This document shows, one piece after another, positions 4,414-12,155 of a stretch of 15,025 bases of DNA. Each line of letters begins with the position of its first letter. The stretch's first letter is position 1. The DNA comes from a virus (lineage: Duplodnaviria; Heunggongvirae; Uroviricota; Caudoviricetes), in IMG/VR virus record IMGVR_UViG_3300010885_072628. One strand, 5' to 3'. The notes below the pieces were generated by a model, which ran no database searches, was not told the origin of the DNA, and was given only the letters and a program-made list of their open reading frames with translations. Made by a program: the position numbers and the translations under genes.

Positions 4414-4468
4414 GAAGTCGCCAAACATTGTGATGTTTGGCGACTTCTTGACTTTTTATTTTCTTTTC
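4414..4468 (+). terminator. Intrinsic terminator-like hairpin (perfect 15-bp stem, TGTG loop) with a T-rich tail
   Basis: GAAGTCGCCAAACAT (4414-4428) / ATGTTTGGCGACTTC (4433-4447), then TTGACTTTTTATTTTCTTTTC. Confidence 0.75.
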
Positions 4469-4476
4469 GTTAAACT
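4448..4476 (+). promoter_or_regulatory. sigma70-like promoter upstream of csrA1
   Basis: TTGACT-N17-TAAACT. Confidence 0.7.
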
Positions 4477-4520: not shown

Positions 4521-4703
4521 ATGTTGGTTTTAAGTAGAAAAATAGATGAAAATATAGTAATAGGCGACGATATCAGAGTTTATGTGTTGGACATAAGAGG
4601 AGACACAGTAAGGCTTGGAATAGAAGCTCCTTCAAAAATTCCAGTACATAGAAGCGAAGTTTACGAAGCCATAAAAGACGGCAAAAATGACGCAAGAAGA
4701 TGA
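4521..4703 (+). CDS. csrA: Carbon storage regulator CsrA/RsmA, paralogue 1 (60 aa)
   Basis: [51 protein letters not shown], with the RNA-binding Arg44 conserved. ATG 4521 follows AAGGA and is preferred over the track's TTG at 4482. Confidence 0.97.
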
Positions 4704-5352
4704 GAATTTTGCATTAGAAGAATTATATTCTATATTTTCTTTTCTAAATCAGAGTTTTTTTCAAAAAAATATAGAACACATTGATATTGGGTTTTGTTTT
4801 CAAAACAAAACCTCAGTCGATTGGAATGCAAAAAAGAAAAATTTGTTTTTTGGTTCCGAGGTCTTTTTTTTAACTTATCAAGAATTTTTGATAAGTTTTT
4901 TACACGAAATGATTCATATTGATCATTTTCAAAAAGATGTAAAAGATGTAGGAACAAACTCTTATCACAAAAGATCTTTTAAAGATCGAGTTGTTGAAAA
5001 TGGTTTGTATTCTGTTAAGCATAAATCTCAAGGTTGGTCTATCATCCTAACAGATTTACCAAGAAATGTGGTAGAAGCAAAAAACATAGACATTCCTGAT
5101 GAGAAATCAATATCAAAAAGATTAGATATTTTTGATCAAGCGTTGAAAAATTTTGATTTGCAAAAAATCTATACATCACTATTCAATATGGCGAGAAATC
5201 TTACACAAGAGAAAAAAACATATACATACAAATACAAGTGCAAATGTCCTCCTCCATTCAACAGCATTAGGTCTGGTCGCAGGCCGAATAGCCCTAGCCC
5301 GTTGCAGGCCAACTGTTTATCGTGCGGTTGTTCGTTCATTTTTGAAAAATGA
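4687..5352 (+). CDS. SprT-like zinc metalloprotease
   Basis: HEMIH (HExxH) zincin motif and a C-terminal YKYKCKC...CLSC zinc-binding element; the start overlaps the csrA1 3' end, suggesting translational coupling. Confidence 0.8.
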
Positions 5353-5370
5353 AATTTTTTTGGCTTCTGG

Positions 5371-5398
5371 TTTACAAGCCAGTTTTTTGTGCTATCCT
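5371..5398 (+). promoter_or_regulatory. sigma70-like promoter with extended -10, upstream of the ligase-parB operon
   Basis: TTTACA-N16-TATCCT, with TG at 5390-5391. Confidence 0.6.
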
Positions 5399-5400
5399 TA

Positions 5401-5465
5401 AGGAGGGATCACCTCTCAGGAGGGATCACGGCATCAAGGGATTGACGATATTTCACGGAAGATCG
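5401..5465 (+). promoter_or_regulatory. GGA-rich 5' leader with multiple candidate CsrA-binding sites
   Basis: GGA at 5402, 5406, 5419, 5423, 5439 and 5457; AGGGAT three times; direct repeat AGGAGGGATCAC twice; TCACGGAAGA (5453-5462) exactly matches the CsrA/RsmE consensus (A/U)CANGGANG(U/A) and overlaps the ribosome-binding site. Confidence 0.7.
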
Positions 5466-6098
5466 ATGAAAATAATTTACCCACCTCGTCCGAAGGGCAA
5501 AATGTTGCCCTCTGATCTTAAGCTATACGAGGACGGAGACTGGCTGGCCCAAAGAAAATTTCGTGGGTCTAGGATCGTTATCAATATAGCCAAGAACAGA
5601 GATATAACTGTTGGTAGCCGACACGGTGCCAAATTCTCTAAATTTGATTTGAGTCAGAGTGAGCGACAAGAGCTTTTGTCTTGTCTAAATTTAGAGGACA
5701 ACAAAGAATATTGGTTGGATGGCGAGTTGATGAATAAGGATGTAGATTCTACTAAGGAAATAATATTTTTCGATGTGTTGCAGGCTGGCAACTATCTCTT
5801 CTTTAAGCCAACACAAGAGCAAAGAATCGAAATCCTTAAAGAGATTTGTAATAATCCCACAAAAAAATGTGCTTCTGGAATTGCTCTGGAAATTTCTACA
5901 AAGTTCTGGATGGCAGAGACATTTGTTGATAATTTCAGAGCTAGATTTGATGAGTCTTTAGATAACGAACAACTTGAAGGTTTGGTTCTGCGTAAGAAGC
6001 GTGTTGGGTTAGATAGTTTGGGCGAAAAAGAATACGAAACAACTAATTTGATTCGTTGTAGAAAGCCTTTTTCGAAAACCAAAGGGTACGAGTTTTGA
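5466..6098 (+). CDS. ATP-dependent polynucleotide ligase-like protein, adenylation domain only (210 aa)
   Basis: Motif I QRKFRGSR (KxxGxR, Lys31), III WLDGELM, IIIa IIFFDVL, IV EGLVLRK, V-like LIRCRK; no room for an OB domain. Start re-assigned from 5349 to ATG 5466. Confidence 0.8.
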   Translation: MKIIYPPRPKGKMLPSDLKLYEDGDWLAQRKFRGSRIVINIAKNRDITVGSRHGAKFSKFDLSQSERQELLSCLNLEDNKEYWLDGELMNKDVDSTKEIIFFDVLQAGNYLFFKPTQEQRIEILKEICNNPTKKCASGIALEISTKFWMAETFVDNFRARFDESLDNEQLEGLVLRKKRVGLDSLGEKEYETTNLIRCRKPFSKTKGYEF

Positions 6099-9251: not shown

Positions 9252-9737
9252 ATGCCAAAGGGCAAAAGAACCTGTCCTATATGTGGCAAGGAAACTGGTG
9301 TCCGCATCAAAATATGCGATTGCGGACATCAGTTTCTTAATAAGCCAAAAGTAGAAAAAGAATCAACCATAGATACATCTGTGGTTGACAAGCCTATCGT
9401 GCTGCACCAAGCAGTAGAGCAAAATCAACCTGTAAGGGTTGGTGGCTCTATAGCGAACCCAGTTATCTTTGCCCCAGAAGGCCGTTGTCCTTGCAAGCCA
9501 GAAGGATATAGAAGTGGTTGGCCCGATGGACCTGCCTCTGAAGAAGTTATAATTGAATGGGCGTATAGAGCTTTTGATTCTGGTGGAATTAAAAGATATA
9601 CGCCACATGCAATTCTATACTGGTCATATCAGTTTTGGGATATTAATGAAAAAGACTACAAAAGAGTCCGAACAATTATTCTCAAAACTTTATGCACACC
9701 AGAAGAGCTATTAGAATTCGGAATTGAGTTCTGTTGA
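9252..9737 (+). CDS. Zinc-ribbon-containing hypothetical protein (161 aa)
   Basis: MPKGKRTCPICG...CDCGHQF basic zinc knuckle; the C-terminal helical domain is unassigned. Confidence 0.78.
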   Translation: MPKGKRTCPICGKETGVRIKICDCGHQFLNKPKVEKESTIDTSVVDKPIVLHQAVEQNQPVRVGGSIANPVIFAPEGRCPCKPEGYRSGWPDGPASEEVIIEWAYRAFDSGGIKRYTPHAILYWSYQFWDINEKDYKRVRTIILKTLCTPEELLEFGIEFC

Positions 9738-9905
9738 TTTTTCTTTAGTCAGTTCGCTTCTCAATACTGTAATTTCTTTATCTGCTTCTATTCCTATTCT
9801 TACTTTATTGCGATTATCTATTCTAACTATCGTAATTTTGATATCATCCATATTTGGACCTCTCAAGATTATGGTTTCATCTTTTTTTCTGCTTAAAACT
9901 AACAT
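9711..9905 (-). CDS. csrA: CsrA/RsmA-family protein, divergent paralogue 2 (64 aa)
   Basis: MLVLSRKKDETIIL...IKITIVRID.RNKVRIGIEADKEITVLRSEL: N-terminal MLVLSRK, VRIGIEA and the Arg44-equivalent (LRSE) are retained; there is an insertion after beta2. Confidence 0.9.
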   Translation of the reverse strand: MLVLSRKKDETIILRGPNMDDIKITIVRIDNRNKVRIGIEADKEITVLRSELTKEKSTELNSEF

Positions 9906-12065: not shown

Positions 12066-12094
12066 TTTACAACCGGCCCCATCTGTGCTAGACT
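12066..12094 (+). promoter_or_regulatory. sigma70-like promoter with extended -10, upstream of clpX
   Basis: TTTACA-N17-TAGACT, with TG at 12086-12087. Confidence 0.7.
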
Positions 12095-12155
12095 CAATGC
12101 AGGGGCGGCAAGGAAGCCCCATGGGCGTACAGGGCGGAATCAACAGGAGTGCCTT
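12095..12155 (+). promoter_or_regulatory. GC-rich structured clpX leader with three GGA motifs (candidate CsrA target)
   Basis: Hairpin GGGGC-GGCAAGGAA-GCCCC (12102-12120) with GGA in the loop; GGA at 12136; ACAGGAG (12143-12149) doubles as the Shine-Dalgarno. Confidence 0.55.

Follow-up and report, generated by a model that had tools for sequence, protein, structure and literature searches.

A GGA-rich leader of a ligase-like gene as a candidate target of phage-encoded CsrA in an uncultured huge phage

Results

A GGA-rich candidate CsrA target in a phage genome

The stretch 5399-5465, which lies between the end of a 221-aa gene (5352) and the ATG at 5466 of a ligase-like gene, reads like the 5' leader of a CsrA-controlled mRNA. 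The window, by which we mean the whole 15,025-nt stretch of phage DNA that was analysed, also carries two csrA genes. Because the phage has two copies of csrA and the leader has GGA motifs, the phage probably throttles the ligase-like gene with its own CsrA. That the stretch acts as a CsrA-repressed 5' leader of an early phage mRNA has, in our judgement, about an even chance of being correct. At the sequence level, the features that define a CsrA target were found: a regulator with intact RNA-binding residues, at least two GGA sites, of which one lies on the ribosome-binding site, and a context that fits the consensus. A preliminary description of the same DNA had proposed a CsrA target here, and the consensus context and the related leaders described below support that proposal. 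The two phage CsrA proteins and the CA(N)GGA motifs in related leaders make the case for CsrA stronger than was first stated.

The ligase-like gene starts at ATG 5466 behind a conserved promoter

The gene and the elements upstream of it are as follows.

5466..6098, + strand: minimal ATP-dependent ligase-like nucleotidyltransferase, 210 aa, start ATG 5466 (Pfam PF01068, 33.5 bits; homologues)
5371..5398, + strand: sigma-70-type promoter with an extended -10, TTTACA, 16 nt, TG-c-TATCCT (sequence; conserved in relatives)
5405..5465, + strand: putative ligase 5' UTR of ~61 nt, start ~7 nt after the -10 (promoter geometry)
5360..5388, + strand: terminator-like hairpin (5360-5382) followed by T6, overlapping the -35 element (-6.7 kcal/mol, z -0.85, not significant alone)

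The listed open reading frame begins 39 codons further upstream. The preliminary description had held these codons to be non-coding and to overlap a promoter, and it had named an alignment of homologous ligases as the check. The ligase-like protein has 353 homologues, mostly of 210-220 aa, and in an alignment of 27 sequences conservation begins exactly at MKIIYPPRPKG, so that the homologues start where the description said they would (MKIIYPP). The few longer homologue gene calls have nothing in common with one another upstream of this motif, and the peptide of 5349-5465 is not conserved. The homologue lengths and the alignment start together indicate that the 39 codons from ATG 5349 are a mis-call and that 5349-5465 is non-coding. 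It is scarcely credible that the call is right, with 5349-5465 encoding additional N-terminal residues of the ligase. The frame has no stop after ATG 5349, and this ATG overlaps the upstream stop as ATGA, but most homologues lack such a stretch, the longer calls share nothing, and a conserved promoter lies inside it. An in-frame TTG at 5442 was rejected as a start, having no usable ribosome-binding-site spacing and no support from homologues. Ribosome-binding sites are weak or unrecognisable in most genes of the window.

The 210-aa protein has no OB domain. Its ligase motif I reads KF(R/N)GSR in place of KxDG; K70, F71, G73 and R75 are invariant across the 27 homologues and residue 72 is R or N. 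The gene behind the ligase is ParB-N-like by a weak Pfam match (17 bits).

The promoter at 5371-5398 overlaps the mis-called extension as described, and most of the related loci that were retrieved have this architecture before the ligase, including those whose spacer and leader sequences are fully diverged. Promoters of this class occur in about eleven good copies in a related 381-kb phage record in IMG/VR. In this relative, promoters of the TTTACAAG...GTGCTATACT class stand about 9-13 nt upstream of two structured RNAs:

L034:1541-1893: tmRNA of the 381-kb relative, directly behind a class promoter (Rfam, 134 bits)
L039:1538-1653: SAM-I/IV riboswitch of the 381-kb relative, directly behind a class promoter (Rfam, 52 bits)

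The conservation of the promoter and its placement before the tmRNA and the riboswitch suggest that it is a real promoter and that transcription starts a few bases after the -10 element. From the promoter geometry, we infer a start near 5405. The matches found among sequencing runs are assembled contigs, and the sole RNA run with a match covers 4917-5134, inside the upstream gene. The hairpin and T6 at 5360-5388 may end the upstream transcript. The tmRNA in L034 was found by Rfam and missed by ARAGORN.

The leader contains four GGA units, two of them from a recent duplication

The six GGA that the preliminary description had counted in the leader lie within 5402-5459 and start at 5402, 5406, 5419, 5423, 5439 and 5457. 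They are arranged in four tandem, decaying units of ~17 nt each, in which a GGA core is followed by GAT (at 5407, 5424, 5440 and 5461).

5401..5417, + strand: repeat unit 1, AGGAGGGATCAC followed by CTCTC; its first GGA is upstream of the putative transcription start
5418..5435, + strand: repeat unit 2, AGGAGGGATCAC followed by GGCATC; tandem duplicate of unit 1, with a one-copy variant known
5434..5445, + strand: unit 3, weak hairpin UCAA-GGGA-UUGA with the GGA in the loop (predicted fold)
5454..5461, + strand: unit 4, CACGGAAG, a CANGGANG match on the ribosome-binding site (sequence match)

The repeats noted earlier were confirmed: AGGAGGGATCAC occurs exactly twice (5401-5412 and 5418-5429), and AGGGAT occurs three times in the whole 15-kb window, both strands included, all in the ligase leader (5404, 5421 and 5437). 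The claimed consensus match over the ribosome-binding site is also present, since CACGGAAG at 5454-5461 fits CANGGANG exactly and ends 4 nt before ATG 5466. Only three CANGGANG matches exist on both strands of the window, and two of these are in the ligase and clpX leaders, behind the window's only two promoters of the class. A single tandem duplication of 17 nt accounts for four of the six GGA, and each copy reads GGAGGGA. Since these four fall in two copies of one unit, the leader holds four separate protein-sized sites (8-12 nt) rather than six. Unit 1 contains a perfect Shine-Dalgarno sequence, TAAGGAGG. The window has only six AGGAGG, both strands included, and the duplicated unit accounts for two of them.

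The number of units differs between natural variants. A one-copy variant lacks exactly 17 nt at 5404, differs further by G5403A and T5434C, and has three GGA left. It is known from a single low-depth DNA contig of 286 nt (run X2) from another freshwater sample, spanning 5238-5539. This contig suggests that the duplication is recent and polymorphic, and the identical 12-nt cores of units 1 and 2 likewise point to a recent duplication.

The earlier estimate of fewer than one GGA by chance holds locally, where the + strand of the window has a mean of 0.85 GGA per 65 nt, but it carries less weight as a scan of the whole window, because six GGA in some 65-nt stretch arose in 19% of first-order Markov simulations. 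Dinucleotide shuffles of the window's ligase leader gave a mean of 4.5 GGA (p 0.18).

Rfam gave no match at gathering score anywhere in the window, and a permissive scan of 5340-5560 (to E = 10) returned no Csr/Rsm family and chance-level matches only. The best of these was a weak GlmZ 3' end, over the terminator-like hairpin alone. The window has no blastn match among deposited phages. Two other candidate features were rejected. The three GATC in the leader do not make a Dam/GATC cluster, as the density in the window is ordinary (53 sites) and relatives' leaders are mostly without GATC. An upstream short ORF is not supported, as there is no ATG, GTG or TTG 4-12 nt past either AGGAGG.

Several related ligase leaders keep GGA in a CsrA-like context

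Eight long leaders behind the conserved promoter were compared: window 5399-5465, L001:2930-3000, L002:1448-1500, L027:273-334, L028:1439-1500, L029:1429-1500, L030:1435-1500 and L129:1103-1164. They are not fully independent, L027 and L129 being close. The ligases of these related loci are 70-77% identical to that of the window, and the leaders, judged by eye, look too diverged to align. The leaders are 53-72 nt long and each contains 3-6 GGA. In seven of the leaders, GGA was the most enriched trinucleotide, with a total of 25 compared to 9.4 in mononucleotide and 16.9 in dinucleotide shuffles (p ≤ 0.0005).

The context of the GGA is also shared. Of the 30 leader GGAs, 17 have CA no more than 4 nt upstream; for GGAs outside the leaders in these loci the figure is 85 of 579 (15%; binomial p 1e-7). 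The commonest base after a leader GGA is U, and GGAGG is seen in only 4 of the 30. This CA(N)GGA(U) context with few GGAGG suggests that the motif is CsrA-like (CANGGANG, RUACARGGAUGU) rather than plain Shine-Dalgarno. Counted back from the start codon, the nearest GGA is at a distance of 9-16 nt, and the others are at roughly 20-35 and 43-64 nt. In the window and in L002, L027 and L029 this nearest site fits CANGGANG, and that of L002 agrees with the SELEX consensus for CsrA, RUACARGGAUGU (PMC4347634), at 11 of 12 positions.

A second type of leader was found in five relatives (L004, L005, L006, L012 and L130), in which the short ligase leaders, examined over 35-45 nt upstream of the start, have no GGA and no Shine-Dalgarno sequence. 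Despite this, L004, L006 and L012 carry csrA, 62-83% identical to that of the window; L005 and L130 have too little sequence upstream of the ligase to see csrA. These csrA-bearing relatives with GGA-free leaders indicate that the link to CsrA is lineage-specific at best, and the second leader type suggests that the initiation or regulation of ligase translation differs between lineages. In the 381-kb relative, GGA density in the ligase leader is no higher than in some other leaders.

In three distant relatives, L014 (about 1410-1460), L015 and L022, an inverted repeat of 12-17 bp brackets the -10 of the ligase promoter. The repeat differs in sequence between L014 and L015 yet stays complementary, which suggests an operator or hairpin under selection.

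Predicted folding of the leader RNA

The overall RNA structure of the ligase leader was not significant (z -1.6). One local element was predicted at its 5' end:

5407..5427, + strand: 5'-terminal stem-loop GAUC-A-CCUC, loop UCAG, GAGG-GAUC (folding)

This hairpin has a predicted energy of -10.9 kcal/mol (z -3.4), and none of 200 shuffles was as stable. It is present only in the allele with the duplication, in which units 1 and 2 are base-paired by prediction and most of unit 2 is buried. The hairpin of unit 3 is weak (-1.1 kcal/mol, z -0.9), and ensemble folding gave its GGA an unpaired probability of 0.77. In a permissive local test, 18 of 25 leader GGAs were flanked by stems of at least 3 bp compared to a background of about 49% (p 0.005). 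Ensemble folding revealed no extra exposure of the leader GGAs, with an unpaired probability of 0.52 compared to 0.50 with shuffled flanks (p 0.34).

In RNA that reads through from upstream, the predicted pairing partner of the ligase ribosome-binding site and start codon is 5354-5369 (fold of 5353-5480, -36.2 kcal/mol, z -3.2, 0 of 200 shuffles). If this fold forms, translation of the ligase might be limited to promoter-initiated transcripts.

Two phage csrA genes, one a fixed neighbour of the ligase

The csrA genes and the gene between csrA1 and the ligase are listed below.

4448..4476, + strand: promoter-like site before csrA1, TTGACT-17-TAAACT (putative, read from the sequence)
4521..4703, + strand: csrA1, 60 aa, starts MLVLSRK (Pfam PF02599, 91 bits, E 4e-26; PHROG 'CsrA-like regulator', E 2e-22)
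4687..5352, + strand: conserved 221-aa gene with a HEMIH motif and a Cys-rich, zinc-ribbon-like C-terminal tail (phrog_6361, function unknown)
9711..9905, - strand: csrA2, a second, more divergent paralogue, 64 aa (tblastn; Pfam PF02599, 62 bits, E 4e-17)

CsrA1 aligns end to end with solved CsrA/RsmA/RsmE chains (1vpz, 1y00, 2jpp) and keeps the RNA-binding residues L2, L4, R6 and the arginine of VHR. The listed csrA1 start, TTG 4482, is probably too early. The promoter-like site of csrA1 comes just after a hairpin at about 4417-4447. In CsrA2, residue 14 is followed by a short insertion, and LR stands in place of HR before the conserved arginine; the csrA2 leader has two GGA.

The start of the 221-aa gene overlaps the end of csrA1 by 17 nt. 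Its HEMIH motif is metalloprotease-like (HExxH), and phrog_6361 is its sole family match, with none in Pfam. By tblastn, most related loci have this gene between csrA and the ligase, and the order csrA, zinc-ribbon gene, ligase was found in at least 14 of them, on contigs of up to 460 kb; in L002 and L028, csrA comes directly before the ligase. This conserved gene order suggests that the window belongs to a huge, uncultured freshwater phage, with csrA as a fixed neighbour of the ligase.

A second candidate leader upstream of clpX

The other promoter of the class in the window precedes a clpX-like gene, called clpX here.

12066..12155, + strand: second promoter of the class (12066-12094) and clpX leader with 3 GGA including CAAGGAAG (sequence, folding)

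The clpX leader is 61 nt long and has ACAGGAG on its ribosome-binding site, and a hairpin with a GGGGC/GCCCC stem is predicted to present CAAGGAAG in its 9-nt loop. A CAAGGAA motif is kept in the clpX leader of a related phage (L049), and the clpX leader of the phage behind L006 (L050) has the ribosome-binding-site GGA only. Covariation in the clpX leader hairpin was considered and set aside, as only two sequences carry the hairpin and the predicted fold of L049 differs from the hand-drawn one.

Discussion

A model for repression of the ligase mRNA by CsrA

In the mechanism we propose, host RNA polymerase would start near 5405 from the extended -10 promoter at 5371-5398 and make an mRNA encoding the ligase-like enzyme and probably also the ParB-like gene behind it. 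A CsrA dimer, supplied by phage csrA1 (two genes upstream) or csrA2 and possibly by the host, would bind the ribosome-binding-site unit CACGGAAG and bridge to the GGA 18 nt upstream (5439). Mercante et al. are said to have placed the optimum spacing for dimer bridging near 18 nt in 2009. The bridged CsrA would keep the 30S subunit off the ligase mRNA, and clpX would probably be controlled in the same way. For the duplicated 5' units, a terminal hairpin that protects the end of the mRNA seems a more likely role than that of extra CsrA sites. Judging by their host-type promoters, csrA, the ligase and clpX would all be early genes. A wider reading of these observations, which we hold tentatively and think somewhat doubtful, is that the phage has a self-contained Csr circuit, in which early phage CsrA would bind CA(N)GGA sites and shut off the phage's own early leaders (the ligase/ParB-like operon and clpX) and in which the ligase leader, with its several sites, would act as a buffer for free CsrA as well.

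Alternative explanations

The leader might have no dedicated regulator and be a purine-rich, Shine-Dalgarno-like sequence grown by replication slippage, with extra GGAs that are neutral, serve only as ribosome standby sites or, by way of the 5' hairpin, stabilise the mRNA in a general manner. We regard this as unlikely, although much in the leader is consistent with it: the copy number of the 17-nt unit varies between natural variants, the identical 12-nt cores indicate a recent duplication, unit 1 is a perfect Shine-Dalgarno sequence, this leader has no significant excess of GGA over its dinucleotide shuffles, and some relatives have no leader GGA. The duplication also creates the stable 5' hairpin, and 5'-terminal hairpins stabilise bacterial mRNAs, as in the ompA leader and the Bacillus STAB-SD elements. 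What counts against slippage is that eight leaders that look, by eye, too diverged to align all keep at least three GGA, in the CA(N)GGA and not the GGAGG context (p 1e-7), since neutral drift or standby sites do not predict a kept CA(N)GGA. Several strong ribosome-binding sites here would moreover be odd, given that most genes of the window have weak ones or none.

Two further readings take the repeats to be binding sites of another kind or for another end. The three direct repeats AGGGAT(C/T)(A/G)AC, at about +1 to +40, could be DNA operators for a phage DNA-binding protein (e.g. a ParB-like one) that, once bound, would block or tune transcription from the 5371-5398 promoter. The repeats follow closely behind the promoter at spacings of 17 and 16 bp, the gene after the ligase is itself ParB-N-like by its weak match, and the long inverted repeats around the -10 in L014, L015 and L022 suggest DNA- or RNA-level promoter control in the family. 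However, the 10-nt repeat is absent from relatives' leaders, where only the GGA core with CA upstream recurs; the window has no further AGGGAT that could belong to a larger set of sites; and neighbouring sites, being 16-17 bp apart, lie on different faces of the helix. We therefore judge operators, and with them this mode of transcriptional control, to be quite improbable. The preliminary description had raised the possibility of a CsrA-titrating sponge like CsrB/RsmZ, and a leader acting mainly in this way would increase the expression of other CsrA targets as long as there is plenty of ligase mRNA. Such a role is in keeping with the presence of several GGA units on a single RNA and of a csrA gene nearby, and there is a precedent in the Salmonella fim mRNA leader, which titrates CsrA (as summarised in PMC4347634). 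This part of the description is not supported. The stretch is not a separate transcript but a 5' UTR that runs into the ligase ORF with no terminator between, it matches no Csr/Rsm family in Rfam, and it offers 3-4 sites only, compared to 18 CsrA sites in CsrB and 9 in CsrC (PMC4347634). Two of its sites are paired by prediction, and the extra copy is dispensable in the natural variant. A sponge is thus very unlikely. Repression by CsrA remains our preferred reading of the ligase leader.

Significance for phage-encoded CsrA

CsrA genes are present in many phages, and knock-down of one phage csrA resulted in smaller plaques (Campa et al. 2021, PMC8450108; Adler et al. 2025, PMC11879866). The published idea for phage CsrA is manipulation of the host (PMC8450108), its genes and its defences (PMC8450108; PMC11879866), and its role in the phage life cycle was described as previously untested (PMC11879866). 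No named phage mRNA target of a phage CsrA turned up in our literature search. The ligase leader poses the question of whether phage CsrA regulates phage genes. If our reading is true, the leader would be the first defined viral target for phage CsrA, giving it a role beyond tampering with the host, and huge phages would have a translational timing device made from a borrowed bacterial regulator. If it is not true, the leader is an ordinary slippage-expanded 5' UTR. An RNA of ~85 nt (5405-5490) adjoining the gene of its presumed regulator, together with natural one- and two-copy alleles and site-free relatives, makes a compact test case.

Comparison with known systems

The small RNAs CsrB, CsrC and RsmX/Y/Z likewise consist of tandem degenerate GGA repeats of about 17-18 nt. 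RNAs of the CsrB/RsmZ type carry five to about 22 GGA, mostly in hairpin loops, whereas the phage leader has four sites, or three in the variant. The phage array further differs from these RNAs in being part of an mRNA and not a non-coding RNA of its own, in its smaller number of sites (3-4, compared to 9-22), in having no Rfam match, and in a repeat number that varies between strains.

The ompA leader and Bacillus cryIIIA exemplify 5' stem-loop and STAB-SD stabilisers of mRNA. The phage leader resembles them in having a stable hairpin, 2 nt from its putative 5' end, and a Shine-Dalgarno-like AGGAGG without a start codon behind it. Unlike these stabilisers, the phage hairpin is confined to the duplicated allele and has no counterpart in relatives.

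T4 RegA is a phage-encoded translational repressor of early mRNAs. The proposed likeness is that of a small early phage RNA-binding protein acting on the initiation regions of early mRNAs, here those of the ligase and clpX; the CsrA fold and recognition motif are unrelated to those of RegA. Control of a mobile-element gene by CsrA is known for the ColE7 lysis gene cel, which CsrA represses (PMC2896534), but the regulator there is the host's CsrA.

The closest likeness is to the CsrA/RsmE-repressed leaders, such as E. coli glgC, cstA and pgaA and Pseudomonas hcnA with RsmE (PDB 2jpp). The phage leader differs from these in that the presumed regulator and target are both genes of an uncultured huge phage, in that placement of the GGA in hairpin loops is unsupported by ensemble folding, and in that some close relatives have no sites. 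The CsrA/RsmE-repressed leaders likewise have several GGA with one on the ribosome-binding site, and they share with the phage leader the context CANGGANG / RUACARGGAUGU and a cognate CsrA with intact RNA-binding residues. The GGA-to-GGA spacing of 16-18 nt in the phage leader would suit one dimer bridging two sites, as in these repressed leaders.
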